In this document: one piece after another, positions 28,149 to 42,025 of the stretch
Position numbering within the stretch: position 1 is the stretch's first letter
How the letters are laid out: each line of letters starts with the position of its first letter
IMG/VR virus record: IMGVR_UViG_3300042898_003498
Source: an uncultured virus (IMG/VR IMGVR_UViG_3300042898_003498)
Lineage: Duplodnaviria; Heunggongvirae; Uroviricota; Caudoviricetes
Reading direction: 5' to 3' (one strand)
Length of the DNA stretch: 64,000 nucleotides
Notes under the pieces: model-generated
Database searches by the model: none
Told to the model about the DNA's origin: nothing
What the model saw: the letters and a program-made list of their open reading frames with translations, nothing else
Made by a program: the position numbers and the translations under genes

Positions 28149-28177
28149 ATTATACAGCCAGTGACCTACTTAGTCAA
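28149..28177 (-). promoter_or_regulatory. sigma70 promoter
   Basis: TTGACT-17-TATAAT. Confidence 0.65.
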
Positions 28178-30757: not shown

Positions 30758-30831
30758 TGGAGCGGGTACCGAGAATCGAACTCGGATGTATTGCTTGGCA
30801 AGCAATCAGGTTACCTTTACATCATACCCGC
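30758..30831 (-). tRNA. tRNA-Gly(GCC)
   Basis: cloverleaf, loop TTGCCAA, CCA. Confidence 0.9.
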
Positions 30832-30972
30832 TTATCTTATAAATTTTCTCATCAGCTTTAGCCAGTAGTATTTAACCCCGCGGAACGATGGAGGCCAATC
30901 CATTCCAAAGCTAGGAGTTATTTCTTTTGGGACATTACCGTATGCTTTATCAAGCGTTTCTTTTACTTTCAT
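30832..30972 (-). CDS. small hypothetical protein (46 aa, MKVKETLDKAYG...)
   Basis: translated by hand; AAGG SD. Confidence 0.5.
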   Translation of the reverse strand: MKVKETLDKAYGNVPKEITPSFGMDWPPSFRGVKYYWLKLMRKFIR

Positions 30973-30991
30973 GTCTGAGCCTTTTATTTAA

Positions 30992-31105
30992 CAGGATAGA
31001 ATTTAACATAGTGCTACCGTTACACCAAACCTTTCGGCTACGGAGTCGAACCGTTCCCTTACTTTTTCAGAGTATTGTTGTTTATTGTTTGCTGTGACTA
31101 TCCTA
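30992..31105 (-). ncRNA. AGGAT/ACAGCAA-family RNA E1 with permuted tRNA(Phe GAA)-like domain
   Basis: AGGATAG/CTATCCT stem; TACT-CTGAAAA-AGTA; T-arm; AGCC-GAAA-GGTT; D-arm. Confidence 0.75.
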
Positions 31106-31112
31106 AAACTAG

Positions 31113-31221
31113 CAGGATGCATTTTACTTTTTTGACCTGTGTGCTGCCATTACACTACTAGCCGGAATCGAACCGGACCTCTGGTTTGGATTATTAGTAA
31201 AAGGTTGCTGTTAGCATCCTA
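31113..31221 (-). ncRNA. AGGAT/ACAGCAA-family RNA E2 (T-arm then D-arm, acceptor nearly deleted)
   Basis: AGGATGC/GCATCCT; CCGGTTCGATTCCGG then TAGTGTAATGGCAGCAC. Confidence 0.7.
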
Positions 31222-31225
31222 TATT

Positions 31226-31299
31226 TGGATGCGGGTCCTGGATTCGAACCAGGGATGCACCGAGCTTATGAGACTGGTGTGGTGGCCTCCCTACCCGCT
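31226..31299 (-). tRNA. tRNA-Met(CAT), initiator-like, atypical
   Basis: 1:72 mismatch, loop CTCATAA, reduced D-arm. Confidence 0.7.
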
Positions 31300-31367
31300 A
31301 TATTCTTTGCCACACTACTTATCCTATTATACACCGTGTGCCATGGTGAATTCTTCTTTTGTATTTA

Positions 31368-31444
31368 TGGTCGGTGTGACACGATTCGAACATGCGACCA
31401 CTGCGTCCCAAACGCAGAGCTCTACCAGCCTGAGCTACACACCG
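31368..31444 (-). tRNA. tRNA-Pro(TGG)
   Basis: loop TTTGGGA, CCA. Confidence 0.92.
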
Positions 31445-31451
31445 ATTAAAA

Positions 31452-31527
31452 TGGTACCTGGTGTCAGACTCGAACTGACATCGTTCTCCGTGTAAAGGAG
31501 ATGCATAACCTCTCTGCGCAACCAGGC
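31452..31527 (-). tRNA. tRNA-Val(TAC)
   Basis: loop TTTACAC, CCA. Confidence 0.9.
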
Positions 31528-31537
31528 AAAATAAAAC

Positions 31538-31621
31538 TGTAGTAAGCCTAGAGCCAATATCTAAGCATAGCCGGGATGCACCGGGGAGCCTATGGCTCAG
31601 ATTGGCACTTGCATCTCTACA
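31538..31621 (-). ncRNA. unassigned long-hairpin RNA between tRNAs
   Basis: GCCAAT.CTGAG.CATAG.../CTATG.CTTAG.ATTGGC imperfect rod. Confidence 0.45.
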
Positions 31622-31626
31622 AAACT

Positions 31627-31700
31627 TGGAGCGGGGTAAGAGAATCGAACTCTCAGCATGAGCTTGGAAGGCTCAGGTATTACCACTATACGAACCCCGC
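31627..31700 (-). tRNA. tRNA-Gly(TCC)
   Basis: loop CTTCCAA, CCA. Confidence 0.92.
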
Positions 31701-31702
31701 AT

Positions 31703-31826
31703 ACTTTATTAAAACATACTCCCAACAAGTGTCTTACGCTTGTTGTACCGTGTGTTATACACATTCCCTTATGCTAGGCTCCCCCGGGTTTGGGCTACAT
31801 AGACGAAGAGTATATTTTAATAAAGT
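31703..31826 (-). ncRNA. long-terminal-stem element (family 2)
   Basis: 19-bp stem ACTTTATTAAAATATACTC/GAGTATGTTTTAATAAAGT with one U-G pair. Confidence 0.55.
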
Positions 31827-32028
31827 GTCTAGCTACTCACACCACATGAGCCCTAAACTGAGCAGTTACTCTGTCCATGACATTTTCTTCTTCTGGAAAG
31901 GCTATCAATCCTCACCCTAGGCAGTTTCCAGTATCCCTTAAATAGGGACTGTGAGGTCAGGTCCTAGCGTACCCCCTGTTCTATCGTTTCAGGGACGCTA
32001 TTTCGTTACGTAGAAATAGTAAGACGGG
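31825..32028 (-). ncRNA. unassigned ~200-nt structured RNA
   Basis: several hairpins (CTATTTC/GAAATAG, TAGCGT.CCCTG/CAGGG.ACGCTA, TCCCT/AGGGA); no convincing ORF. Confidence 0.5.
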
Positions 32029-32035
32029 TGTTTAG

Positions 32036-32156
32036 CAGGATAGTTGCTGCCAACTGTTTTACATGTATCAGCGAACATGTTTGATAGACTTGAAGTTATC
32101 TCTGCCCATCAGTTTGATACGGGTATTAGCCGTTAGGGTTTGCTGTGCCTATCCTA
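32036..32156 (-). ncRNA. AGGAT/ACAGCAA-family RNA E3 (CTTCAAG loop)
   Basis: AGGATAG-GC-ACAGCAAA...CTATCCTG. Confidence 0.7.
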
Positions 32157-32162
32157 TAAACT

Positions 32163-32237
32163 TGGTGCCGGAGAGATGATTTGAACACCCGACCTTCGCT
32201 TTACAAGAGCGCTGCACTACCACTGTGCTACTCCGGC
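32163..32237 (-). tRNA. tRNA-Thr(TGT)
   Basis: loop CTTGTAA, CCA. Confidence 0.92.
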
Positions 32238-32243
32238 GTCTTC

Positions 32244-32495
32244 TTACTTAGCTTCAACTAACTTCTTTTCATTGTATTCTTGCAACTTGGCCTTGAAGGC
32301 ATCTTCAGTTAGACCGTGCCAACCAATGCAGTTGCCAGTTGGACTACGGCCGCAGCCGCAAGTACCTTTTTTCATTTGTTCCACACTAGGTGACATAGTT
32401 TCTTCCTTTAAATCTCTACTAAAAATTGCGTCCCAACGTGTGTCCCATTCTGCTTGACTAACGCTGAACGGACGAGCTCTTGAACCTTTTGACAT
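32244..32495 (-). CDS. small protein with CDGSH-like Cys/His motif
   Basis: CGCGRSPTGNCIGWH. Confidence 0.6.
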   Translation of the reverse strand: MSKGSRARPFSVSQAEWDTRWDAIFSRDLKEETMSPSVEQMKKGTCGCGRSPTGNCIGWHGLTEDAFKAKLQEYNEKKLVEAK

Positions 32496-32725
32496 TATCG
32501 AACCTTCTTAAGATATTCTCTACCAATCTTACCTGCTTCAATTTCTTGAAGTGCAGTAATAGTAGGGCTATTAGTTCCCATGACCTGTTTGGCATGACCA
32601 CGACGCAGTTCGCGAACTCGAGCACTGGCAATCAGAACTAGATCAAATCTATTGCCCACTGCTTCAACACATTTGTCTGTGTCGATGTTTTGTGGGGAAA
32701 AAGGCACTTTAACAACTTTAATCAT
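32495..32725 (-). CDS. rpoZ: RNA polymerase omega subunit homolog
   Basis: NRFDLVLIASARVREL...ALQEIEAG. Confidence 0.85.
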   Translation of the reverse strand: MIKVVKVPFSPQNIDTDKCVEAVGNRFDLVLIASARVRELRRGHAKQVMGTNSPTITALQEIEAGKIGREYLKKVR

Positions 32726-32751
32726 CTACTACTTTCGTTGGTTTAAAAATT

Positions 32752-32827
32752 TGGCTCCCCGGGCAAGGATCGAACTTGCGACCAACAGATTAACAGTCTG
32801 CTGCTACTACCGCTGAGCTACCAGGGA
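32752..32827 (-). tRNA. tRNA-Asn(GTT)
   Basis: loop CTGTTAA, CCA. Confidence 0.92.
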
Positions 32828-32834
32828 ATATACT

Positions 32835-33008
32835 TTACTTTGCGTCTCGCTCTTTAGCGGATCGCGGAACAATGTTCGCAGCCACTTGAGCATCGATCAT
32901 TGCGTTCTTGAACCCATGACGATCTTGATCGTTCTTAAAACTCATCAATGCTATCATAGTCTTTGCTCTTTTACTCAACTTAAAAGTCGAATTAGTTCTT
33001 GCTCTCAT
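32835..33008 (-). CDS. small hypothetical protein (MRARTNSTFKLSK...)
   Basis: AAGGA SD; the longer upstream start overlaps tRNA-Ala. Confidence 0.6.
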   Translation of the reverse strand: MRARTNSTFKLSKRAKTMIALMSFKNDQDRHGFKNAMIDAQVAANIVPRSAKERDAK

Positions 33009-33029
33009 TTTATTCCTTAAAAAATTGTA

Positions 33030-33104
33030 TGGTGGACCGACGGGGGATCGAACCCCGACCCGAGGCTTGCAAAGCCACTGTGCTCCCATTATCACTATCA
33101 GCCC
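33030..33104 (-). tRNA. tRNA-Ala(TGC)
   Basis: G3:U70, loop TTTGCAA. Confidence 0.9.
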
Positions 33105-33188
33105 ATATTAAAACACATTTAAACAGTCCTTCAACGCTAGTCGCTATCTCCCCTACTAGAGGGCGGATCTGTATGTGTTTTAATATGG
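33103..33188 (-). ncRNA. long-terminal-stem element (family 2)
   Basis: CCATATTAAAACACAT/ATGTGTTTTAATATGG. Confidence 0.55.
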
Positions 33189-33269
33189 TGCCCCAGGTCG
33201 GACTCGAACCGACACGCCTCTCGGCACTGGCTTCTAAGACCAGCGTGGCTACCATTACACCACCGGGGC
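33186..33269 (-). tRNA. tRNA-Leu(TAG), long variable arm
   Basis: loop CTTAGAA, CCA. Confidence 0.92.
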
Positions 33270-33277
33270 AAATTTTT

Positions 33278-33306
33278 ATTATACAGGATATTTATAATCC
33301 TGTCAA
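33278..33306 (-). promoter_or_regulatory. internal sigma70 promoter with TATAAATA in the spacer
   Basis: TTGACA-ggattataaatatcctg-TATAAT. Confidence 0.8.
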
Positions 33307-33323
33307 CCTCTATTTTAATAACT

Positions 33324-33400
33324 TGGTGCGCCCACTAGGACTTGAACCTAGGACCAAAGGATTATGAGTCCTCTGCTCTGACCAACTGAGCTATAGGCGC
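33324..33400 (-). tRNA. tRNA(CAT), Ile2 or elongator Met
   Basis: loop CTCATAA, CCA. Confidence 0.88.
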
Positions 33401-33409
33401 ATCAATCAT

Positions 33410-33501
33410 TGGTACCAGCGTAGGGAATCGAACCCTATCAAGAACGCTAATCTGGCGCTAAAAGGTATATAAGACCTCTCTGACTACCAAGTCTCGCTGG
33501 C
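33410..33501 (-). tRNA. tRNA(TAT, Ile anticodon) with long variable arm
   Basis: GAGGT-CTTATAT-ACCTT, ~20-nt variable region, CCA. Confidence 0.75.
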
Positions 33502-33511
33502 ATTAAAATAA

Positions 33512-33630
33512 CAGGATACCTTTTTTACGATAGGCTTGAAGCCTATTGCTCAACCGCTGAGCGAATCTGCCAAAGGCAAATGTTGGAATCGAACCAACGT
33601 GTCATAAATGACGTTGCTGCAAGTATCCTA
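33512..33630 (-). ncRNA. AGGAT/GCAGCAA-family RNA E4: complete permuted tRNA with TCA anticodon
   Basis: T-arm, ATTTGCC-TTT-GGCAGAT, D-arm, ATAGG-CTTCAAG-CCTAT inside AGGATAC/GTATCCT. Confidence 0.78.
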
Positions 33631-33636
33631 AAACTG

Positions 33637-33724
33637 TGGCGGAGCATGTAGGAATCGAACCTACTCACCCATTGCTGAATGACAGATTAGCAATCTGTTG
33701 CCTTAACCGGTCGGCCAATGCTCC
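33637..33724 (-). tRNA. tRNA-Ser(GCT)
   Basis: loop TTGCTAA, long V arm, G73. Confidence 0.92.
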
Positions 33725-33845
33725 ATTAGTTGAATCCTCTACACTATATGCCTAACTCAACAGCTTTACTCGAGTTTACTGTTTATTGCTTTGGTTACAT
33801 AACGTATGATCAAACCTCTGTGCTTGCAGAGGATTCAACTAATGG
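33723..33845 (-). ncRNA. element closed by 18-bp perfect stem
   Basis: CCATTAGTTGAATCCTCT/AGAGGATTCAACTAATGG. Confidence 0.55.
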
Positions 33846-33927
33846 TGCTCCGAGCCGGACTCGAACCGGCACACCTTTCGGCGAGAGATTTTAAGTCTCT
33901 TGTGTCTACCTATTTCACCATCGGAGC
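33843..33927 (-). tRNA. tRNA-Leu(TAA), long variable arm
   Basis: loop CTTAAAA, CCA. Confidence 0.92.
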
Positions 33928-33944
33928 AAAATACTAGCTTAACT

Positions 33945-34012
33945 TTTTAAAGAACAATGCTGTTATTAGCAGCGTATGTATAAATTATAGCGGCTTTCTC
34001 ACTGTGTGTCAA
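33945..34012 (-). promoter_or_regulatory. sigma70 promoter plus boxA-like antiterminator
   Basis: TTGACA-17-TATAAT (33984-34012); TGTTCTTTAAAA at 33945-33956. Confidence 0.75.
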
Positions 34013-34032
34013 TAGGTATTTACAAATATTTT

Positions 34033-34107
34033 TGGCCGGTCTTGAGAGGATCGAACTCCCACCCTCGGTTTCGAAGACCGAGATGATATCCATTTCACCA
34101 AAGACCG
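34033..34107 (-). tRNA. tRNA-Arg(TCG)
   Basis: loop CTTCGAA, CCA. Confidence 0.88.
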
Positions 34108-34112
34108 ATAAG

Positions 34113-34186
34113 TGGTGCTCCTACGTAGAATCGAACTACGATTCCTGTCATACCAAGACAGTGTTCTACCATTAAACTATGGGAGC
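34113..34186 (-). tRNA. tRNA-Thr(GGT)
   Basis: loop TTGGTAT, CCA. Confidence 0.9.
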
Positions 34187-34214
34187 AATAAATAAATTAA
34201 TATTTTAAAAGTTT

Positions 34215-34766
34215 ATGTTAAACCACAAAAAATCTATAATTGAATACGATTGCGATGAGATTTTAAATATCTTGCAAAAATATCCAAGGTCAGTAGGCAA
34301 TCAATCAAACGCAGTACCTTGTTCAATGTTAGAAGTATATCAAATATCTAAAATATTAAATTTTAAAGAATCTATAAAGTCTATACTGTATTTCCGAATG
34401 AGTCCAGAATTTTCATCGTTAATACACAAAGATTATTATCTAATATCTGATTTGTCCTATGCATTAAATTTGCCATTATTTGGATGCAAGGATGTATCTA
34501 TGAAGTGGTTCAAACAACTTGATCCTAATACAGGGGTAGTTCTTTTTCCGGGTCCAAGTTACGGCTCACCAACACCTTCTTTAGATCGTAAAAATGCAAT
34601 ATGTGTAGATGAGGTTAATTGTAATACACCCACAGTAGTCAAAGTAGATGATTGGCATAATATTGCAAATCACTCAACCGTTGAGGATGCTGGACTCATT
34701 AGTATAAGATTTAAAGATCTCAGTTTGGTCCCGCCAGTAGGAATCGAACCTACATTTAAGTCTTAG
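34215..34766 (+). CDS. 2OG-Fe(II)/cupin-like oxygenase
   Basis: IHKD, ALNLPL, WHNI, SIRF. Confidence 0.55.
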   Translation: MLNHKKSIIEYDCDEILNILQKYPRSVGNQSNAVPCSMLEVYQISKILNFKESIKSILYFRMSPEFSSLIHKDYYLISDLSYALNLPLFGCKDVSMKWFKQLDPNTGVVLFPGPSYGSPTPSLDRKNAICVDEVNCNTPTVVKVDDWHNIANHSTVEDAGLISIRFKDLSLVPPVGIEPTFKS

Positions 34767-34800
34767 GAGGACCCCGTACTATCCATTGTACTATGGCGAG
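34726..34800 (-). tRNA. tRNA-Arg(CCT)
   Basis: loop CTCCTAA, CCA. Confidence 0.9.
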
Positions 34801-34814
34801 CAATTCGTAACCAA

Positions 34815-35504
34815 TCACCAAAGAATTGCGTAATCTTTATATTTAATTGCCGAAGAGACAATTAAGTCTCTATTTCTTTTAAGGACTATCTCAGTAACTG
34901 CTCTATTAATTGTAAGCAGCACTGCAATCCTAGTGCCAGGTGTTGTTACCATAGGTGCATGTACAGCCCTATAATTATTTAAATAGTAGGCCATATGAGG
35001 ATTAGACATTTTGCAATTAAATATTTCTTTTTGCAGTCTGTCATCATCACTGCCCACTGGCACAACAATACTATTAATTGTATTGTATTTTTCAATAGTC
35101 TTACGAATCAGTAATGGATTTTCTTTGTAATTCTCACATTCAAGATAAAATCTAAAACCGGCTGGGTCTATATCATTATGCCAAAATCCAATACCGGTAA
35201 CTGATGGTCTTACAGGTAAAAATAATACTGTATTCAGTTCGTATCTTTTCATATTAAATGCTTCGTAACAATACTTGGCAAGTTCGGGAAATTCTTTATC
35301 AAAGTTATTTTGCCATGCACCATTTGATGCTCCGAATACTAAGTCCCAGGTGTACTCTTCTCCTATTGTTTTTTCTGCATGAATTTCTTTTTCTTTGCAA
35401 GGTTGTGGATACACTTTTTTAATCCACTCCATAAACTTAACCATATCTATATCTGGTCTTATAGGTATGTCAAGAGGCGTATAACATATATCGATTGGTT
35501 CCAT
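34815..35504 (-). CDS. 2OG-Fe(II)/cupin-like oxygenase
   Basis: WHND...VHA...RIA; similar to 18576. Confidence 0.5.
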   Translation of the reverse strand: MEPIDICYTPLDIPIRPDIDMVKFMEWIKKVYPQPCKEKEIHAEKTIGEEYTWDLVFGASNGAWQNNFDKEFPELAKYCYEAFNMKRYELNTVLFLPVRPSVTGIGFWHNDIDPAGFRFYLECENYKENPLLIRKTIEKYNTINSIVVPVGSDDDRLQKEIFNCKMSNPHMAYYLNNYRAVHAPMVTTPGTRIAVLLTINRAVTEIVLKRNRDLIVSSAIKYKDYAILW

Positions 35505-35556
35505 AAATTTATTTACCTACCAAATTATTTTATCTAATATTTCTATAAATATTTTT

Positions 35557-36120
35557 ATGGACATTGACTATATCATAGATTTAAAATTACCTGTAAATTT
35601 TATTCCGCACGAGTTTTCAAAAAGTTATCAATATCAAGAACTTATACTTACACCGGATCTAATCAATCAAGAATTTCATGTGTTGTTAAAAGATCTCGGT
35701 CTTAAAACTTGCCCCGACGGAAGTAGATTTTTTCACAGACCTCCATTTAATCGAGGAACAATTCACGTTGATGCATTTGATGCAAATGCTAGCAAGTTAC
35801 TCTTCATATACGACAGCGAAGGCGCCATAATGAATTGGTATGAATTGTTATCTGGAAGTACTTCTACGCCGTATATCAATTATCAAGGGGAGGAAATCAG
35901 ATCATTTGATCCTAAAAAATGTACAAAAATATTAACAACTCCGGCTGATAGTCATTGTCTAATAAATGGAAAAATGATGCATCAAGTCTTTGTCGGCCGT
36001 AATAATTTTAAATATAGAAAATGTTATTCAATAACACTATTGGATTATCAAACCAGTGAAAGAATTCACTGGAATGAGGCGATTAAAATTTTTAAACCTT
36101 ATTTTTTAAATACAGTATAG
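35557..36120 (+). CDS. 2OG-Fe(II)/cupin-like oxygenase
   Basis: IHVD...MHQV...RKC. Confidence 0.5.
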   Translation: MDIDYIIDLKLPVNFIPHEFSKSYQYQELILTPDLINQEFHVLLKDLGLKTCPDGSRFFHRPPFNRGTIHVDAFDANASKLLFIYDSEGAIMNWYELLSGSTSTPYINYQGEEIRSFDPKKCTKILTTPADSHCLINGKMMHQVFVGRNNFKYRKCYSITLLDYQTSERIHWNEAIKIFKPYFLNTV

Positions 36121-36135
36121 CAATAAATATTTTTT

Positions 36136-36666
36136 ATGCGATATATTACACCTATTAAATTTCCAAAATTTAATTTAGAGTTTCCAAAGAATTCAACTAA
36201 GAGAATTACATATATTGATCCATTTTCTATCCTGCGTACATTAGGAGTTCCGGAATGTAGTTATTTTGATTTGCAGTGCCTTGAAGCAGTGATTATGCCC
36301 CAGTCCTCTTTAGAAATACACAAGGATACTGACGGTGCAGGCAAGTCAGGAGATGTTTGGAGTCTAGTAGTTTGTCCGAACAACAATGATAATAATTGCT
36401 TTTTAGAAATCTACGAAGAAGTTCCTGAAACAAAATTACTTACTTTCAAATCAGTAAGTAATTTTACATTAACGCATTTAGATCCCGCAACTGCTAAATT
36501 AGTAGATCGTTGGAATATAAAAGACAGTGCTTGCATATTCAATGCCGGAGATTGCTGGCACACTGTAAGAAACCCCACTGACACACATATACATGTATTG
36601 AGCTTTAGGAGTAAAAAAATAGAATCACTTAATATTTTAAAAAAACTAGTAGAATCTTTAGTTTAA
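36136..36666 (+). CDS. 2OG-Fe(II)/cupin-like oxygenase
   Basis: IHKD...WHTVRN...SFR. Confidence 0.55.
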   Translation: MRYITPIKFPKFNLEFPKNSTKRITYIDPFSILRTLGVPECSYFDLQCLEAVIMPQSSLEIHKDTDGAGKSGDVWSLVVCPNNNDNNCFLEIYEEVPETKLLTFKSVSNFTLTHLDPATAKLVDRWNIKDSACIFNAGDCWHTVRNPTDTHIHVLSFRSKKIESLNILKKLVESLV

Positions 36667-36707
36667 TTTTAAGATACGCGAGCATTAATTTTGTTTGATT
36701 AAAAACC

Positions 36708-36782
36708 TGGTACCGCCTAGAAGAATCGAACTCCTATTCACACTTTAGAAGAGTGCTGTATTCTCCATTATACGAAGGCGGT
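36708..36782 (-). tRNA. tRNA-Arg(TCT)
   Basis: loop CTTCTAA, CCA. Confidence 0.9.
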
Positions 36783-36790
36783 AAATTATT

Positions 36791-36865
36791 TGGTGGAGTG
36801 TAGCAGAGTCGAACTGCTGACCAGGCTTTGCGGCCTGCTGTTAGCCATTTACACAGTCACACCCC
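36791..36865 (-). tRNA. atypical tRNA-like gene (6-nt loop CGCAAA, Cys-like)
   Basis: good acceptor, T-arm and CCA; non-canonical anticodon loop. Confidence 0.55.
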
Positions 36866-36869
36866 ATAT

Positions 36870-36957
36870 TGGAGGAAAGCCAGAGAATCGAACTCTAACC
36901 GTTTTCACGATCCTGCTGTTTTCGAGACAGCGGCCAGCCCAGCTGACATAACCTTCC
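36870..36957 (-). tRNA. tRNA-Ser(CGA)
   Basis: loop CTCGAAA, long V arm. Confidence 0.85.
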
Positions 36958-36958
36958 A

Positions 36959-37045
36959 TGGCAGAGGATAACGGAATCGAACCGTCCCCGCGTTAGCGAG
37001 GGAACACCTTTCCAAGATGCTTAGTCACCATGACTTCTATCCTCT
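36959..37045 (-). tRNA. tRNA-Ser(GGA)
   Basis: loop TTGGAAA, long V arm. Confidence 0.85.
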
Positions 37046-37050
37046 ATGTT

Positions 37051-37173
37051 TGGTGGAGACCCCTGGATTCGAACCAGGATCACGTCCTTATGAATGGAAA
37101 TTTTGTAAATTGCTGACTGTATCCTTGCCAGGATAACCTTTGTTTACGTGTGCTACCATTACACCAGGTCTCC
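37051..37173 (-). tRNA. tRNA(CAT) with ~47-nt ATCCT/AGGAT-CAGCAA insertion in the anticodon stem (E5)
   Basis: acceptor GGAGACC/GGTCTCC-ACCA, D and T arms normal; insert TATCCTG-GCA-AGGATACAGTCAGCAA. Confidence 0.75.
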
Positions 37174-37178
37174 GAAAA

Positions 37179-37236
37179 TGGCGGGACATTTTTGATTGCA
37201 GTTAAGATTCATTACTGAATCTATTTTTTTTGTCCC
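37179..37236 (-). ncRNA. mini acceptor-stem RNA ending in GCCA with hairpin + ACTGCAA
   Basis: GGGACA/TGTCCC-GCCA; AGATTCA-GTAA-TGAATCT-TA-ACTGCAA. Confidence 0.55.
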
Positions 37237-37243
37237 ATAACTG

Positions 37244-37321
37244 TGGTACCCTCTGGCGGATTCGAACCGCCACTGAACTCCTTTTGAGAGAGCTGCCTGC
37301 TACCAATTGGGCTAAGAGGGC
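37244..37321 (-). tRNA. tRNA-Leu(CAA), short variable loop
   Basis: loop CTCAAAA, 5-nt V region. Confidence 0.85.
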
Positions 37322-37330
37322 ATAAAAATT

Positions 37331-37407
37331 TGGTGCTCCTGACAGGCTTCGAACCTGCAACATACGATCTCTCAAACCGCAACGTCTACCAATTGCGTCA
37401 CAGGAGC
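37331..37407 (-). tRNA. tRNA-Leu(GAG), short variable loop
   Basis: loop TTGAGAG, 5-nt V region. Confidence 0.82.
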
Positions 37408-37408
37408 A

Positions 37409-37483
37409 TGGCACGGGTACTAGGGCTCGAACCCAGAATTGGCAGAGTCAAAGTCTGTGGTGTTACCATTACACTATACCCGA
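37409..37483 (-). tRNA. tRNA-Gln(TTG)
   Basis: loop CTTTGAC, CCA. Confidence 0.9.
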
Positions 37484-37495
37484 ACAAAAATATAA

Positions 37496-37603
37496 CAGGA
37501 TGCTGTAGTATCGCCGGGAATCGAACCCCTATTTCAACTACGGTGCCCAACTGCACGGCCTGCCAGATTGTTAGCGGCATAAGTGTTTGCTGTAATCATC
37601 CTA
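37496..37603 (-). ncRNA. AGGAT/ACAGCAA-family RNA E6 (contains T-arm)
   Basis: AGGATG/CATCCT; ACAGCAAA; GGGGTTCGATTCCC. Confidence 0.7.
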
Positions 37604-37607
37604 AAAC

Positions 37608-37685
37608 TGGTACCCCTGACCGGATTCGAACCGGTACTGAACAATGTTTAAGACTGTTGCCTGCTACCAATTGGGCTACAGGGGC
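37608..37685 (-). tRNA. tRNA-Leu(TAA), short variable loop
   Basis: loop CTTAAAC, 5-nt V region. Confidence 0.85.
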
Positions 37686-37691
37686 ATAATT

Positions 37692-37766
37692 TGGTAGTTC
37701 CTACTGGAGTTGAACCAGTGACCTTCATCGTGTCAGGATGGTATTCTACCGCTGAACTAAGGAACT
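37692..37766 (-). tRNA. tRNA-Val(GAC)
   Basis: loop CTGACAC, CCA. Confidence 0.9.
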
Positions 37767-37810
37767 GTATTGATGCATTTAGTATCACATATACTAAGAT
37801 AAATATGGTT

Positions 37811-38398
37811 ATGACGTATTTTGTGCATTTACCTTCTTTAAATGTCGAACTATATACCAATTACTTTTTACATACCTTTATGCCAAGAAAAGATTTTGAC
37901 AGAATTTCTAAAGGATTGTTATATATTCAATATTTTAAAAAGGACTTTTGCAATGACCTTATCATAATGACATTGGAAAGCATTTTACAAAAAAAATATA
38001 ATTTTCCACCAATTGAATATTTCAGTATTTTTAAACATGATAGGGTACAACCTATACATCATGATGGAACAGAAGTACCTAGATATGCTAGTTTAAATTT
38101 ACCATTGCATGGTTTTGAATCAACTAAAATGATTTTTTATAAAACTATTTTAGATGTGCCACCGACTACATCTGATGGAAATTACTATTTGCCTGAAAAT
38201 GTAGAACCTGTCATCGAATTAGAGGGAACCAATGAATGGGTTCTTATAGATTCCAGCATTCCCCACAATATAACAAATGTAGATTTTAATAATCCTAGAA
38301 TTACACTCTGTATAAGATTCGTCTCAAATCCTACATTTGCGGAGCTTGCTGACAAGATAAATGGTACCCTTGGTCGGATTCGAACCGACACTGTATGA
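37811..38398 (+). CDS. 2OG-Fe(II)/cupin-like oxygenase
   Basis: IHHD, ASLNLPL, PHNI, CIRF; GATAAATA-N5-ATG start. Confidence 0.55.
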   Translation: MTYFVHLPSLNVELYTNYFLHTFMPRKDFDRISKGLLYIQYFKKDFCNDLIIMTLESILQKKYNFPPIEYFSIFKHDRVQPIHHDGTEVPRYASLNLPLHGFESTKMIFYKTILDVPPTTSDGNYYLPENVEPVIELEGTNEWVLIDSSIPHNITNVDFNNPRITLCIRFVSNPTFAELADKINGTLGRIRTDTV

Positions 38399-38439
38399 CT
38401 TCTAAGGCCACTGCCTGCTACCAATTGGGCTACAAGGGC
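38362..38439 (-). tRNA. tRNA-Leu(TAG), short variable loop
   Basis: loop CTTAGAA, 5-nt V region. Confidence 0.85.
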
Positions 38440-38449
38440 ATGAATAGGT

Positions 38450-38597
38450 TTTTGAGAGACCAGCTATCTTTCTCAAGGACTCACTGGCTTGTCTCGAGTA
38501 GGAGAGTTTTGCTTGACCTTGTGTTGCTACTGGTGTGTCATGCTCAAGAATAGGGCACTAGCGCACAAGGGACTCAATCCCGTCGTCTATCTCAAAA
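38450..38597 (-). ncRNA. unassigned ~150-nt structured RNA
   Basis: closing TTTTGAGA/TCTCAAAA; internal CCTTGTG/CACAAGG-type pairings. Confidence 0.5.
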
Positions 38598-38599
38598 CT

Positions 38600-38675
38600 T
38601 GGCGTCCCATAGCGGATTCGAACCGCTGTAAATACCGTGAAAGGGTACTATCCTAGGCCTCTAGATGAATGGGAC
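38600..38675 (-). tRNA. tRNA-Glu(TTC)
   Basis: loop CTTTCAC, CCA. Confidence 0.92.
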
Positions 38676-38680
38676 AAATT

Positions 38681-38755
38681 TGGTAGTAACGGTGAGATTC
38701 GAACTCACACCGGGCACCGTATGAAGGTGTTGCACAACCATTATGCTACGTTACC
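38681..38755 (-). tRNA. tRNA(CAT), Met or Ile2
   Basis: loop TTCATAC, CCA. Confidence 0.85.
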
Positions 38756-38849
38756 ATATCAAAACACACTAGCGGAATCGAACCGTTACGCCCCCTGCAC
38801 TACGTGAGGAAGCGGATGCCCACACTAGTTCTAGTGAGCTTTGATATGG
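38754..38849 (-). ncRNA. family-2 long-stem element enclosing a T-arm
   Basis: CCATATCAAAGCTCACTAG/CTAGTGTGTTTTGATATGG; CGGTTCGATTCCG. Confidence 0.55.
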
Positions 38850-38920
38850 TAGGCCTGCTCGGGAACGATCCGAGTTAGTCGGATTAAAAGTCCGATACTT
38901 CACCTTAAAGTTTCAAGCCC
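38847..38920 (-). tRNA. tRNA-Lys(TTT), atypical T-loop
   Basis: loop CTTTTAA; GGATCGTTCC. Confidence 0.82.
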
Positions 38921-38926
38921 ATTGAT

Positions 38927-39001
38927 CCACTTATTAAAATACACTAAACTACTTAGGCTGCAATAGGAGCCATTGTTCATAAAATGTATTTTAATAAGTG
39001 G
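38927..39001 (-). ncRNA. long-terminal-stem element (family 2)
   Basis: CCACTTATTAAAATACA/TGTATTTTAATAAGTGG, 17 bp. Confidence 0.55.
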
Positions 39002-39074
39002 TAGGACTGCTGGGACTCGAACCCAGAATTGGCAGATTAAAAGTCTGCTGTGATAACCATTTCACTACAATCCC
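38999..39074 (-). tRNA. tRNA-Lys(TTT)
   Basis: loop CTTTTAA, CCA. Confidence 0.92.
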
Positions 39075-39079
39075 ATATA

Positions 39080-39156
39080 TGGTCCCTAGCGTCAGATTCG
39101 AACTGACACCTCATCGGTTAAGAGCCGAGTACGCTACCGTTAAACGCCAGCTAGGG
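39080..39156 (-). tRNA. tRNA-Lys(CTT)
   Basis: loop CTCTTAA, CCA. Confidence 0.88.
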
Positions 39157-39184
39157 TTAGATGCATATTAAATTTGTCTTTAAT

Positions 39185-39304
39185 GTGCCAACCCTAGACC
39201 ATATACGGGATCTAAAGTTGACACTATCGTTTACCAGAACGTTTCATGTCATTACCTTTTTTGTTTAAAAATTAAATTATACAACCTTTTAGGGTAGTTG
39301 TCAA
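39185..39304 (-). promoter_or_regulatory. sigma70 promoter, micro-ORF MKRSGKR and hairpin upstream of three tRNA-Lys
   Basis: TTGACA-17-TATAAT 39276-39304; ORF 39224-39247; 14-bp hairpin 39185-39224. Confidence 0.6.
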
Positions 39305-39314
39305 CCGCATTGAA

Positions 39315-39512
39315 TTTGTAAGTAGTTGCGTCCCTCATATCGCAACCATTTTCCCTTGTAATAAAGCCGGCAGGGTCAAGATACGTCACTTGGGATTCAT
39401 CCAGATGGTACACTCAGTACGTCTAAGCCGGGGCACGACCCCGCATCCTTTTACTATATTAGTCCTTCGAAGAAACCTTTATAGCGTGACTTCTCTTGCT
39501 GACACTTACAAA
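39315..39512 (-). ncRNA. ~200-nt RNA with terminal stem followed by GTCAGCAA
   Basis: TTTGTAAGT/ACTTACAAA; GTCAC/GTGAC; GTTGCG/CGCAAC. Confidence 0.55.
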
Positions 39513-39515
39513 ACT

Positions 39516-39590
39516 TGGCGCCCACATATGGAATCGAACCACAATCCCCGGCTTCGTAAACCAGTGTATTATCCATTATACTATGCGGGC
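39516..39590 (-). tRNA. tRNA-Arg(ACG)
   Basis: loop TTACGAA, CCA. Confidence 0.9.
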
Positions 39591-39598
39591 AAATAAAA

Positions 39599-39660
39599 CA
39601 GGATAGCATCTTTTAGTTTCATTTACAGTGAAAGTTTTTGAATTTGCTGTTACTATCCTA
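39599..39660 (-). ncRNA. AGGAT/ACAGCAA-family RNA E7 displaying a Tyr(GTA) anticodon stem-loop
   Basis: TTTCA-CTGTAAA-TGAAA inside AGGATAG/CTATCCT. Confidence 0.75.
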
Positions 39661-39664
39661 AAAC

Positions 39665-39740
39665 TGGTGCCACAAACTGGACTCGAACCAGTAACACACG
39701 AATTTTCAATCCGCTGCTCTACCATTGGAGCTATTGTGGC
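39665..39740 (-). tRNA. tRNA-Phe(GAA)
   Basis: loop TTGAAAA, CCA. Confidence 0.92.
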
Positions 39741-39748
39741 AAAATGTT

Positions 39749-39823
39749 TGGTGGAGGCCGGGGGTATCGAACCCCTCTAGTCACGATGCTTGCAAGGCAA
39801 CGCCGCAGCCCTCTGCTGCCCCC
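39749..39823 (-). tRNA. tRNA-Ala(TGC), atypical D-arm
   Basis: G3:U70, loop CTTGCAA. Confidence 0.78.
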
Positions 39824-39832
39824 AAATTGTAT

Positions 39833-39911
39833 TGGCTCCGTGTGTGAGGATCGAACTCACCTAATCATTGATTAACAGTCAAGTCCTTGCACCATGCTTG
39901 GATTTCACGGA
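39833..39911 (-). tRNA. tRNA-Asn(GTT)
   Basis: loop CTGTTAA, CCA. Confidence 0.85.
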
Positions 39912-39919
39912 ATAAATTT

Positions 39920-39994
39920 TGGCGATCCTGCGGGGAATCGAACCCCGATATCCGACTAGACAGGCCGGTATAATAACCACTATATGACAGGACC
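39920..39994 (-). tRNA. tRNA-Asp(GTC), U37
   Basis: loop CTGTCTA, G73. Confidence 0.88.
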
Positions 39995-40001
39995 ATTAAC
40001 T

Positions 40002-40088
40002 TGGTGGAGACGACTGGAGTCGAACCAGTAGTGCCTTTCGGGCGGCGGATTTACAGTCCACTGGGGTTACCAATTTTCCTACATCTCC
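40002..40088 (-). tRNA. tRNA-Tyr(GTA)
   Basis: loop CTGTAAA, long V arm. Confidence 0.9.
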
Positions 40089-40094
40089 ATAACT

Positions 40095-40170
40095 TGGCGC
40101 CACAGACGGGAATCGAACCCGCCTAAATCGGATAGACAATCCGGTGCCCTACCCAGAGGACTACTGTGGC
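40095..40170 (-). tRNA. tRNA-Asp(GTC), U37
   Basis: loop TTGTCTA, G73. Confidence 0.85.
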
Positions 40171-40177
40171 ATAAATT

Positions 40178-40252
40178 TGGTACTCCGAACGGGTTTCGAT
40201 CCCGCTTCTCCAACTTGAAAGGCTGGCGTCCTAGCCACTAGACGACCGGAGT
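40178..40252 (-). tRNA. tRNA-Glu(TTC)
   Basis: loop CTTTCAA, CCA. Confidence 0.88.
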
Positions 40253-40256
40253 AAAA

Positions 40257-40369
40257 TTCTTATACAACTACACACTCACAGGAATCGAACCTGCCTACCC
40301 AAAGTAATCATCGGGCTGTAATCCGCTACATCAGCGTGGCCTACGCTTTTGTGTGTATGTGTATAAGAA
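40257..40369 (-). ncRNA. tRNA-like cloverleaf on an extended stem, no CCA
   Basis: TTCTTATACA.ACACAC/GTGTGT.TGTATAAGAA; three hairpins plus GCAGGTTCGATTCCTGT. Confidence 0.6.
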
Positions 40370-40386
40370 CTTCTTATACTGTAAAT

Positions 40387-40451
40387 TTTTAAAGAACACA
40401 GTTAATTTCTTAACATGTATATATTATAGCAAGGTTTTACCTCCTTGTCAA
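40387..40451 (-). promoter_or_regulatory. sigma70 promoter plus boxA-like antiterminator
   Basis: TTGACA-17-TATAAT 40423-40451; TGTTCTTTAAAA 40387-40398. Confidence 0.75.
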
Positions 40452-40496
40452 TAGTCTTTGCAACTATTTTTGTTGTATTTTAACAACACTATTAAA

Positions 40497-40559
40497 CAGG
40501 ATACTGTTTGCTTTTCACAGCCAAAAAGTGAAATATTTTGGTTTGCTGTAAGTATCCTA
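40497..40559 (-). ncRNA. AGGAT/ACAGCAA-family RNA E8 with Gln(TTG)-like loop
   Basis: TTTCAC-TTTTTGGCT-GTGAAA inside AGGATAC/GTATCCT. Confidence 0.72.
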
Positions 40560-40562
40560 AAC

Positions 40563-40636
40563 TGGTGCGGGGTAAGGGAATCGAACCCTTAACTACTGGG
40601 TGGAAGCCAGTGATCTTACCATTAAACGAACCACGC
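40563..40636 (-). tRNA. tRNA-Gly(TCC)
   Basis: loop CTTCCAC, CCA. Confidence 0.88.
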
Positions 40637-40643
40637 ATTAACT

Positions 40644-40719
40644 TGGTGCCCCAGTCCGGAATCGAACCGACTTCCCCTGCTTACAAGACAGGACCTCATC
40701 CGTTAAAGGCTTCAAGGGC
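40644..40719 (-). tRNA. tRNA-Thr(TGT)
   Basis: loop CTTGTAA, CCA. Confidence 0.8.
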
Positions 40720-40726
40720 AATAAAT

Positions 40727-40804
40727 TGGAATAGCGGGTGAGATTCGAACTCACGGTTTTCAGGATTTGCAATCCAGTGCATTGGGCCTCTCTGCCACCG
40801 CTAC
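40727..40804 (-). tRNA. tRNA-Cys(GCA)
   Basis: loop TTGCAAA, U73. Confidence 0.88.
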
Positions 40805-40809
40805 ATAAT

Positions 40810-40883
40810 TGGTACCTAAGTATGGAATCGAACCATCATCTAGCGGTTATCAGCCGCTTGCTTGACCATTAAGCTACATAGGT
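40810..40883 (-). tRNA. tRNA-Ile(GAT)
   Basis: loop CTGATAA, CCA. Confidence 0.88.
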
Positions 40884-40895
40884 ATAAACTTATTA

Positions 40896-40968
40896 GGGGT
40901 GACTATCGGGGCTCGAACCCGAACTACCAGAGTCACAGTCTAGGTTGCTACCATTACAACATAGCCAC
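40896..40968 (-). tRNA. tRNA-His(GTG)
   Basis: loop CTGTGAC, C73; genomic end reads CCT and -1 base is T. Confidence 0.82.
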
Positions 40969-40991
40969 ACCTAATAAGTCTAACAAAAGAT

Positions 40992-41065
40992 TGGCACCCC
41001 CATCTGGAATCGAACCAGAGCTAACGAGTTCAAAGCCCGTTGTGCTACCATTACACTATAGAGGA
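40992..41065 (-). tRNA. tRNA-Gln(TTG)
   Basis: loop CTTTGAA, CCA. Confidence 0.88.
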
Positions 41066-41075
41066 ACAAAATAAA

Positions 41076-41137
41076 CAGGATGTATTTTTACGAGTTGAAT
41101 TAAAAGTTCAGTGTATAAATTTGCTGTTAACATCCTA
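41076..41137 (-). ncRNA. AGGAT/ACAGCAA-family RNA E9 displaying a Lys(TTT) anticodon stem-loop
   Basis: TGAA-CTTTTAA-TTCA inside AGGATGT/ACATCCT. Confidence 0.75.
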
Positions 41138-41141
41138 AAAC

Positions 41142-41216
41142 TGGCGTACCCCCAAGGACTCGAACCCTGACCTAACGGATTTGGAATCCGCGATGCTGCC
41201 ATTACACTAGAGATAC
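41142..41216 (-). tRNA. tRNA-Trp(CCA)
   Basis: loop TTCCAAA, CCA. Confidence 0.88.
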
Positions 41217-41226
41217 ATTAAAAACC

Positions 41227-41344
41227 TTTTGTTATGTTGTAGATTTTATCAGTTTATTGTTCTACAACCTCACGACGCTATGGCAGCTATGCTGCCGCAC
41301 TGCTCGATACCACCTCTGCTTTCGCAGTGTCCGGAATAACAAAA
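41227..41344 (-). ncRNA. unassigned multi-hairpin RNA
   Basis: TTTTGTTAT/ATAACAAAA closing; CTGC-GAAA-GCAG, GGCAGC/GCTGCC, GTTGTAGA/TCTACAAC. Confidence 0.5.
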
Positions 41345-41346
41345 TT

Positions 41347-41420
41347 TGGTGCGGGGTAAGGGAATCGAACCCTTGACTGAACGTTGGCAACGTTCGGTTA
41401 TACCATTTAACTAACCACGC
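41347..41420 (-). tRNA. tRNA-Gly(GCC)
   Basis: loop TTGCCAA, CCA. Confidence 0.88.
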
Positions 41421-41425
41421 ATATT

Positions 41426-41495
41426 TGGTTGCGGAGGAAGTATTCGAAACTTCTAATCTGGCTTATGAGGCCTTCATCTACCCTGACTCTCCGCG
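41426..41495 (-). tRNA. tRNA-fMet-like (CAT), 70 nt, reduced D-arm
   Basis: C1:A72, loop CTCATAA. Confidence 0.68.
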
Positions 41496-41502
41496 ATAAC
41501 TT

Positions 41503-41596
41503 TGGCAGTGATGGAGGGATTTGAACCCTCGGACCCGGTGTTTGCCGAATCGTCTTCTTAGCAGGAAGGTGGTTTAAGCCGCTCACCCACATCACT
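41503..41596 (-). tRNA. tRNA-Ser(GCT)
   Basis: loop CTGCTAA, long V arm. Confidence 0.9.
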
Positions 41597-41602
41597 ATAA
41601 TT

Positions 41603-41717
41603 TGGTACGACCGGTAGGTCTCGAACCTACAAGAGCACGGTAACTATGTTATGTGCCCATTCCCCATTCTATGCTATGAGCATAGCGGGAGGTCTGCCAT
41701 ATTCCACTTACGGTCGT
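41603..41717 (-). tRNA. 115-nt tRNA-like gene with extended anticodon arm (CAT) and long V arm
   Basis: ACGACCG/CGGTCGT-ACCA; TCCC.CTATG-CTCATAG-CATAG.GGGA. Confidence 0.65.
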
Positions 41718-41725
41718 ATAATGTA

Positions 41726-41754
41726 ATTATACAATCTTATGTAGAACTTGTCAA
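41726..41754 (-). promoter_or_regulatory. internal sigma70 promoter
   Basis: TTGACA-17-TATAAT perfect. Confidence 0.8.
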
Positions 41755-41760
41755 TAATAT

Positions 41761-41850
41761 TGGCGGAGCGTGATGGAATCGAACCATCACCGGCTACTAA
41801 CCAGTGGAACAGTTTTCAAGGCTGCTTGCTCACCATGAACTCCACACTCC
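41761..41850 (-). tRNA. tRNA-Ser(TGA)
   Basis: loop CTTGAAA, long V arm. Confidence 0.88.
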
Positions 41851-41858
41851 AATAACTT

Positions 41859-41934
41859 TGGTCTCCGTACCAGGATTCGAACCTGGACCTTACCGCCCCA
41901 AACGGCAAGTGCAACCTGATAACACTTTACAGAG
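41859..41934 (-). tRNA. tRNA-Pro(TGG)
   Basis: loop TTTGGGG, CCA. Confidence 0.85.
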
Positions 41935-41942
41935 ATAAAACT

Positions 41943-42025
41943 TGGTGCTGCCTATAGGAATTGAACCTATGTTCTCTTTCGAGCCGCCTTATCAAGACGG
42001 TGCCTAACCATTCGGCCAAAGCAGC
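41943..42025 (-). tRNA. tRNA(GAT, Ile anticodon) with variable arm
   Basis: loop TTGATAA; CTC-GAAA-GAG arm. Confidence 0.8.

Follow-up and report, generated by a model that had tools for sequence, protein, structure and literature searches.

Why should a phage place among its tRNA genes small RNAs that display little more than an anticodon arm? The question is raised by a 64,000-nucleotide (nt) stretch of DNA from an uncultured member of the Caudoviricetes (IMG/VR record IMGVR_UViG_3300042898_003498), which is referred to at its full length as the window. Three elements of about 62 nt, E7, E8 and E9, lie within its tRNA array. An original prediction, made from the letters of the stretch, had read them as decoy substrates for anticodon nucleases, or as baits that bring such enzymes to a scaffold-binding protein. 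The three elements exist as described there, all on the minus strand and co-oriented with the tRNA genes. Our analysis suggests that they belong, as its smallest members, to a family of Y-RNA-like scaffolds that is widespread in phages and would present anticodon arms by way of a divergent clade of Ro60 proteins. We give this reading a probability of roughly 0.55. The evidence that carries it is a structured handle common to many viral contigs, an anticodon-loop signature in the minimal members of the family, and the linkage of the handle to a gene for a Ro60-like protein.

Three minimal elements in the tRNA array

The elements, and the genes with which their loops can be compared, are as follows.

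30758..42025, minus strand: tRNA array; 48 tRNA genes called by ARAGORN, all 48 on the minus strand, with handle elements filling tRNA-like slots
39599..39660, minus strand: E7; handle UAGGAUAG..CUAUCCUG, bulge UAACAGCAA, hairpin UUUCA-CUGUAAA-UGAAA with a Tyr GUA-type loop
40497..40559, minus strand: E8; handle UAGGAUAC..GUAUCCUG, bulge UUACAGCAA, hairpin UUUCAC-UUUUUGGCU-GUGAAA
41076..41137, minus strand: E9; handle UAGGAUGU..ACAUCCUG, bulge UAACAGCAA, a middle helix, and hairpin UGAA-CUUUUAA-UUCA with a Lys UUU-type loop
40002..40088, minus strand: tRNA-Tyr(GUA); 7-nt loop identical to that of E7
38847-38920 and 38999-39074, minus strand: two tRNA-Lys(UUU) genes; 7-nt loop identical to that of E9

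Read along the minus strand, E7–E9 share one order of parts. Each begins with U-AGGAU and two or three variable bases, continues with (U/A)ACAGCAA and about 35 nt that include a small hairpin, and ends in a 3′ arm made of the complement of the variable bases followed by AUCCU-G-UU. The closing stem is UAGGAU..AUCCUG. The pattern CAGGAT-N40-70-ATCCTAAA has three matches in the window, compared to 0.02 expected. E7 folds with a minimum free energy (MFE) of -11.5 kcal/mol and a z-score of -2.73; the z-scores of E8 and E9 are -3.19 and -2.03, and the MFE structure of E9 displays the 7-nt loop.

The anticodon stem-loop of a tRNA has a stem of about 5 base pairs (bp), a 7-nt loop, and the loop residues Y32, U33 and R37. 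These features are present in E7, where 5 bp close the loop CUGUAAA, and in E9, where 4 bp and a C/A mismatch close the loop CUUUUAA. The identity of these loops with those of the tRNA-Tyr gene and of both tRNA-Lys(UUU) genes, as first read from the sequence, was confirmed. E8 is indeed the weakest of the three, as had been said, but the Gln mimicry ascribed to it does not hold: its loop of 9 nt is of a 'UUGG' type and is not an anticodon loop, whereas the tRNA-Gln of the window carries the loop CUUUGAA. The hairpins of E8 and of its counterpart in cyanophage BUCT-ZZ01 (L139 8006-8064) contain UUGGCUG, a complement of the handle's CAGC(C)AA; in the MFE structure of E8 the two are paired. This pairing may represent a self-masking form of the handle.

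No other part of a tRNA was found in E7–E9, in agreement with the original prediction: acceptor stem, D arm and T arm are all lacking, and neither ARAGORN nor the Rfam tRNA model (RF00005) called a tRNA in them. Because the acceptor end, the T arm and the D arm are absent, the elements can neither be charged nor decode. Their stems are A/U-rich, unlike the anticodon stems of the window's own tRNAs, and the elements are therefore not recent copies of tRNA genes.

The handle family and its anticodon-type loops

IMG/VR was scanned with the pattern AGGAT-N4-ACAGCAA-N30-60-ATCCTG, which returned at least 136 stretches; the family counts given below rest on the matches listed. Since a pattern this short could by our own estimate yield tens of chance matches in IMG/VR, additional pairing was tested. 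At least two complementary pairs beyond the five fixed ones were present in 104 of 124 unique viral-contig matches among the matches listed. In the prokaryote genomes that served as a control, the same was true of 18 matches out of 120, with about 14% expected by chance, and only one prokaryote match, on a 2-kb contig, looks genuine. Thus the handle, present in more than 100 viral contigs, is a structured and essentially viral element. Support for the stem is drawn from these unselected pattern matches and from the prokaryote control. RNAalifold pair counts were set aside, since the sequences behind them had been chosen for stems of 7 bp or longer, which makes the argument circular for the two variable handle pairs.

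When the loci were rescanned more loosely, with one mismatch at most in the motif and no fewer than 7 bp in the closing stem, 180 unique elements were obtained. Their sizes are bimodal, with 133 minimal members of 53–80 nt and 47 large members of 83–186 nt. Their constant part is made up of a terminal stem of 8–10 bp, (U/A)ACAGCAA as a bulge on the 5′ side, and a 3′ tail that is G-U-rich. The stem sequence varies by phage lineage (AGGAU, GGAC, AGACC, AGGAA, and a 12-bp stem in phage phiM12) and CAGCAA stays constant, which is the pattern that would be expected of a protein-recognised bulge carried on a structural stem. A tRNA lies within 300 nt of 146 of the 180 elements, on the same strand in all 146 cases and on the opposite strand in none. 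The usual spacing is 3–6 nt after the upstream tRNA and 8–10 nt before the next one. Compared with cultured phages by BLASTN, E9 and E7 had marginal matches only, two of which led to BUCT-ZZ01 and to cluster L mycobacteriophages. A literature search at the level of listings and abstracts, without subscription journals or bioRxiv supplements, found no description of such a family; the handle RNAs apparently constitute a large and undescribed family of phage small RNAs.

Plain MFE folding reads A/U-rich hairpins poorly, and stems and loops were therefore enumerated explicitly and compared with 200 shuffles. In 115 of the 133 minimal members, a 7-nt loop is closed by 4 bp or more (mean of 39 and maximum of 53 in the shuffles). 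The original prediction had proposed that the loops of homologs be tabulated for the arrangement Y32-U33-NNN-R37. This arrangement is strongly enriched: Y-U-NNN-R loops of 7 nt occur in 72 of the 133, compared to a mean of 2.8 and a maximum of 8 in the shuffles. With a second rule for picking the hairpin, 56 of the 133 carried an anticodon-type loop and nine more a 'UUGG'-type loop like that of E8. Among the 72 strict loops, C32 is found in 66, U33 in all 72, A37 in 70 and A38 in 67, whereas positions 34–36 are variable and hold 20 different triplets. The loops are anticodon-loop mimics and not random A/U-rich sequence.

The commonest triplets are UUU (23 loops), UCU (8), UGU (7), GUA (7) and UGA (6). 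A34 occurs in only 4 of the 72 strict loops; 32 would be predicted from base composition. None of the 72 has a stop-reading triplet (UUA, CUA or UCA), compared to 9.1 predicted from independent position frequencies. Moreover, as many as five triplets are borne by one identical stem, UUUGA..UCAAA being found with UUU, UCU, GCU, CUU and UGU. Because A34 is avoided, stop triplets are absent and triplets are swapped, these loops point to mimicry of real tRNAs and not to a fixed loop motif or to drift. The displayed triplets appear to behave like real sense anticodons, and the signature appears to be under selection. U or A occupies position 36 in 68 of the 72 loops, as would be expected from the base composition of the inserts alone (76% A+U).

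A probable Ro60-like partner and the comparison with known RNAs

The open reading frames (ORFs) within 3 kb of the elements were clustered into families. The most frequent neighbour, found at 16 loci, encodes a protein of about 470 amino acids which matches Pfam DUF2828 (2.7e-27) and DUF7788 (7.8e-49), and not TROVE. No sequence-level match was obtained between this protein and the PDB, solved Ro60 chains included. An AlphaFold model was built from 11 locus proteins (pLDDT, the predicted local distance difference test score, 76.7; pTM, the predicted template modelling score, 0.75). In a Foldseek search with this model, all 11 listed rows with E ≤ 0.001 were Ro60 proteins (phage phiLo, human, Deinococcus and Xenopus), aligned over about 500 columns each. 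The best match was Ro60 of phage phiLo (1.5e-7, TM 0.53). The MIDAS (metal ion-dependent adhesion site) residues, D-x-S-x-S, T and D, are invariant in the DUF2828 locus proteins. As modelled, the protein has the two parts that define Ro60/TROVE proteins, a HEAT-repeat ring together with a vWA (von Willebrand factor A) domain with a MIDAS.

The gene was then sought in 96 of the records behind the 136 listed loci, namely those of the loci up to L114 apart from L103 and L112. Of the 81 records whose elements were validated, 48 carry it; among the 36 of these that are 40 kb or longer, 27 do. It was found in none of the 15 records with chance pattern matches only and in none of 14 control genomes. 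Among records at least 90% complete, both that have elements carry the gene, and all three that have chance matches do not. At 16 of 16 loci every element lies on the strand of the DUF2828 gene, and at about 10 of these 16 an element ends 15–30 nt before its start codon. Judged from this linkage and from the modelled fold, the handle RNAs probably have the Ro60-like protein as their partner. A literature search on DUF2828, at the level of listings and abstracts, found no functional study.

The association extends to cultured phages. By tblastn, a DUF2828-type protein was detected in 704 cultured phage records, including Felix O1-like phages, Listeria phage A511 and cluster L mycobacteriophages; the annotation of this clade is mostly 'hypothetical' or 'RNA-binding protein'. 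The phage table of Chen et al. 2014 includes TROVE-type phages (Bxz1, phage G, CcrColossus); term searches of this table gave no match for Faith1 or LeBron. Elements and gene were linked in five of six cultured phages examined.

Listeria phage A511: three elements directly upstream of the DUF2828 gene, with an RtcB ligase gene 1.3 kb downstream
mycobacteriophage CELFI: three elements directly downstream of the gene, two minimal (one with a CUGUUAA loop) and one tRNA-like
Felixounavirus UAB_Phi87: elements within the tRNA array after the DUF2828 gene
Sinorhizobium phage phiM12: two elements with the 12-bp handle
cyanophage BUCT-ZZ01: an element about 100 nt upstream of the gene, with a CUUUUAC loop

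In A511 (L145 1507-7062) the run consists, in this order, of three handle elements and the genes for the DUF2828 protein, an HD phosphohydrolase and the RtcB 'tRNA splicing ligase'. A sub-threshold match to ROOL RNA (87.5 bits; gathering score 99.1) lies just upstream of this same-strand run. A loop that is not of the anticodon type, UGCGGAU, is common to minimal elements of CELFI (L143 2299-2350) and UAB_Phi87 (L144 4887-); its occurrence in an actinophage and in a Felix O1-like phage suggests a second conserved type of cargo.

The large members of the family carry a more complete cargo. Eight clear handle elements and one chimera are present in the window, and five of the elements are large copies of 108–121 nt.

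30992..31105, minus strand: large member; handle and permuted tRNA mimic, with an anticodon-like UACU-CUGAAAA-AGUA arm, T arm, closed AGCC-GAAA-GGUU acceptor hairpin and D arm
31113..31221, minus strand: large member; handle, then T arm and D arm in permuted order
32036..32156, minus strand: large member; same handle, with cargo that is not tRNA-like and lacks the T-loop motif
33512..33630, minus strand: large member; handle, T arm, closed acceptor hairpin of 7 bp, D arm, and an extra hairpin where the anticodon arm would sit
37496..37603, minus strand: large member; handle outside a tRNA-like body of normal order (acceptor-like stem, D-like arm, T arm)
37054..37173, minus strand: chimera; tRNA-like RNA with a normal, free acceptor end and encoded CCA, uncalled by ARAGORN

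Across the family, the T-loop motif is found in 37 of 47 large members. Their commonest order, T arm, closed acceptor hairpin and D arm, is the topology of YrlA. In 10 of the 37 members with a T loop, an anticodon-like arm with a Y-U-NNN-R loop lies 7–10 nt before the T loop, which is the spacing seen in tRNA; these ten are therefore complete, circularly permuted tRNA mimics. In other large members the handle substitutes for the acceptor stem. As several topologies are observed, the handle is a single module joined to tRNA parts in various ways. In the chimera, the anticodon region is replaced by about 60 nt comprising a capped handle hairpin, AUCCU-GGCA-AGGAU, followed by CAGUCAGCAA. The same type recurs in loci L120 and L012 and is the non-permuted counterpart of the large members. 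One further motif match in the window, at 61753-61768, lies inside an ORF, has no 3′ arm and was rejected as chance.

PMC4201824 and PMC12135203 describe bacterial and phage Y RNAs as encoded adjacent to Ro60, with a terminal stem and a conserved GNCGAA(N)G or CGAA bulge. The Y RNAs often carry a permuted tRNA-like module, and those of D. radiodurans and phage phiLo tether PNPase (same papers). In the features covered there, the handle RNAs resemble YrlA (RF02553), YrlB and the phiLo Yrl1 and Yrl2: they are encoded beside a gene for a Ro60-type ring protein and on its strand, and their two ends pair into a terminal stem whose 5′ side bears a conserved, purine-rich bulge. Their distal cargo, too, is modular and often a circularly permuted tRNA mimic, and several different copies occur per genome. 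The handle family differs from the Y RNAs in its protein, which belongs to the DUF2828/DUF7788 clade, in its motif, which is (U/A)ACAGCAA instead of GNCGAA(N)G or CGAA, and in the scattering of its copies through tRNA arrays. Unlike YrlA, it includes many cargoes that are a bare anticodon arm, the very part that YrlA lacks. Two defining traits of Y RNAs are distributed unevenly: a co-oriented neighbouring gene of the Ro60 family is found at the level of the family and not within the window, and a tRNA-like module is found in the large members and not in E7–E9. No member reached the Rfam YrlA gathering score of 69 bits, and that model gave nothing on E7–E9; the best score, for one large member over the full model, was 32.1 bits (E 0.0046). 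At permissive thresholds Rfam gave no family on the large members at 30992-31221 or on the elements of the five cultured-phage loci, and at gathering score it found tRNAs and no other RNA family in the window.

A second resemblance is to the Class I RNAs of Dictyostelium (RF01414). According to PMC7919456, these RNAs measure about 60 nt, have a terminal stem whose 5′ strand adjoins an 11-nt motif, and carry CUGU at the 3′ end. They are eukaryotic, have their own DUSE (Dictyostelium upstream sequence element) promoter, are reported to be confined to dictyostelids, and are bound by the RRM protein Rnp1A/CIBP. The handle RNAs may correspond to them in their length, their short terminal stem and their variable middle, and in ending in ..CCUGUU where the Class I RNAs have CUGU. 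The unpaired motif directly 3′ of the 5′ stem strand is CCUUACAGCAA in the RF01414 consensus and CUUACAGCAA in E8; other handle members, unlike E8, share just ACAGCAA with it. Three elements have RF01414 as their best Rfam match, at full length but below its gathering score of 41.5, namely E8 (40497-40557, 29.4 bits) and, at 27.1 and 26.8 bits, two elements at L051 3194-3248 and L024 2829-2904 that have CUUACAGCAA by the 5′ stem strand and a 3′ CUG(U). Unlike the handle family, the Class I RNAs have no known link to a Ro60-like protein. A search for a dictyostelid DUF2828 link gave metagenomic proteins only in the homolog search and viral clusters only in the atlas. A protein of unknown function pulled down with a Class I RNA, DDB_G0281243, is reported in bioRxiv 10.1101/2020.04.05.026054. 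The resemblance may be due to convergence or chance; otherwise it would be an unexpected lead for these RNAs.

Possible roles, alternatives and genomic setting

We propose that each element would be transcribed together with the tRNA array. In view of its close and regular spacing to the tRNAs on either side, it would be released by the enzymes that process these neighbours, leaving a short U-rich 3′ tail. The handle would then dock onto the phage Ro60-like ring protein (DUF2828 with its vWA/MIDAS domain), much as the bulged stem of a Y RNA docks onto Ro60. The variable part would act as a tRNA mimic, either a whole and often circularly permuted body in the large members or the anticodon stem-loop alone in the minimal ones, and the ribonucleoprotein (RNP) would present anticodon arms to proteins that recognise anticodons. 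Its most likely use would be in conflicts over tRNA, by holding or diverting host anticodon nucleases as a decoy or a tether, or else by linking damaged tRNAs to a hub for repair or decay. We infer a role in tRNA-integrity conflict from the analogy with tethering by Y RNAs and from the RtcB gene beside the DUF2828 gene in A511. The display and exchange of sense anticodons would fit targets that discriminate between tRNA species.

Phage tRNAs, such as the T5 tRNA-Lys in the case of PARIS and the tRNAs of mycobacteriophages, are presumed to escape or outnumber anticodon nucleases, and repair by T4 Pnk/Rnl acts against PrrC. E7–E9 are similarly encoded in a phage tRNA array and similarly concern Lys UUU and Tyr; those systems, unlike E7–E9, are functional, chargeable tRNAs or repair enzymes. 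A role as nuclease decoy or tether is plausible but can be put forward only tentatively. Bolder and more doubtful is the idea that a library of exchangeable anticodon arms on a Ro60-docking handle captures or disarms the matching nucleases, with the triplets taking part in an arms race, and that the Class I RNAs are possibly Y-like RNAs of the DUF2828 type. The proposal bears on what the tRNA-like modules of known Ro60–Y RNA particles are for: in a divergent Ro60 clade, the RNA cargo would shrink to exactly the part of a tRNA that is cut by defence nucleases. The proposal offers a testable functional hypothesis for phage Ro60-like proteins, possibly as RNA-based counter-defence, and with this family phage tRNA arrays gain dozens of RNA genes that lack annotation.

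Several observations weigh against a Ro60-docked display of anticodon arms. The scaffold-binding protein postulated by the original prediction has gained a candidate in the handle-linked DUF2828 protein, but no DUF2828 or TROVE gene was found in the 64-kb window, where 68 of the 93 ORFs of at least 90 amino acids were scanned. The partner of this virus is deduced from relatives; in L066, for example, an E9-like element occurs together with a DUF2828 gene. The gene is also missing from 33 of the 81 element-bearing records; these are mostly fragments, but nine are at least 40 kb long. Conversely, Vibrio phage nt-1 has the gene and no element within 3 kb of it. An anticodon-type loop is missing from roughly half of the minimal members, among them E8, and as the homologs are related, the loop counts are not independent events and their p-values overstate independence. 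Finally, parts of 38900-41300 are covered by contigs from four RNA libraries, with an E7-like variant on loose ends; such contigs reveal neither strand nor ends, may stem from DNA carry-over, and are no evidence of a discrete transcript.

The missing genes would be accounted for if the hairpins acted without any protein as competitive substrates or inhibitors of anticodon nucleases, the handle just stabilising them or directing their processing. The anticodon-loop signature and the swapping of triplets agree with such free decoys as well. However, stability alone hardly explains a single-stranded CAGCAA bulge that is invariant across lineages with different stems, the linkage to the Ro60-like gene is tight and strand-specific, and many members bear a cargo other than an anticodon arm, so that we consider free decoys unlikely. 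A slightly lower probability is given to a purely cis-acting element with no role in trans, be it an autoregulatory leader of the DUF2828 gene, a weak terminator or attenuator, or a processing signal between tRNAs. The short distance from element to start codon at many loci, the terminator-like stem and U-rich tract, and the fixed spacing to adjoining tRNAs all speak for it. Yet most copies lie among tRNAs and remote from the gene, the window contains eight or nine of them although it lacks the gene, the three copies of CELFI are downstream of the gene, and a regulator would need neither tRNA-like cargo nor swapped triplets.

About as improbable as cis action is the tethering of tRNA enzymes other than nucleases, such as anticodon-reading synthetases or enzymes that modify position 37 or 34, which the Ro60-like RNP would recruit or sequester. 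Transfer RNAs with U or A at position 36 carry t6A37 or i6A37, and the loops, with U or A at position 36 in nearly all cases and with A37-A38 almost fixed, would suit such enzymes; but the A+U content of the inserts by itself predicts this position 36. Serine-type triplets, which SerRS, the seryl-tRNA synthetase, does not read, make up 10 of the 72. The diversity of triplets on one stem also resembles diversifying selection more than the recruitment of a single enzyme. That Y RNAs tether effectors such as PNPase, as described in PMC4201824 and PMC12135203, is a precedent for tethering of this kind too. Least probable are decaying tRNA genes, or small mobile inverted-repeat elements without function that spread in tRNA arrays. 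Terminal inverted repeats, several copies per genome, tRNA-derived cargo and nearby homing endonuclease genes (HNH, GIY-YIG) recall such elements, but the copies are strand-specific with respect both to the tRNAs and to the Ro60-like gene, the handle shows compensatory changes, and C32, U33, A37 and A38 are conserved. Moreover, the family is conserved from actinophages to cyanophages, and no consistent target-site duplication was found in the flanks of the elements.

The setting of the array in the window includes a row of minus-strand genes that adjoins it.

26754-27296, minus strand: HD_4 domain protein
28174-28638, minus strand: AAA_33 P-loop kinase
28638-29150, minus strand: dual-specificity phosphatase-like protein

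These three may be RNA end-healing enzymes. The window also encodes 7-deazaguanine-pathway genes (GTP cyclohydrolase I and QueC-like) and sugar-modification genes, and the DNA runs that contain the stretch are labelled as lake water metagenomes. Inside the minus-strand array, at 34215-36666 and 37691-38398, plus-strand ORFs of low GC content without a Pfam match look like inserted cassettes. Between tRNA-Phe and tRNA-Asp, at 39741-39920 on the minus strand, there are two tRNA-sized, tRNA-like stretches uncalled by ARAGORN, one of which gave a weak match (19 bits) to a tRNA-Sec model at 39753-39823. Contigs of the RNA libraries are stacked over 39305-39547, with summed word depths of up to 12448 (X18) and 279 (X17). 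Within this region, at 39315-39512 on the minus strand, a terminal stem of 10 bp is followed by UCAGCAA; the fold has a z-score of just -1.22 and the stretch has no Rfam match. The region may be an abundant uncharacterised RNA, or a look-alike derived from other organisms.

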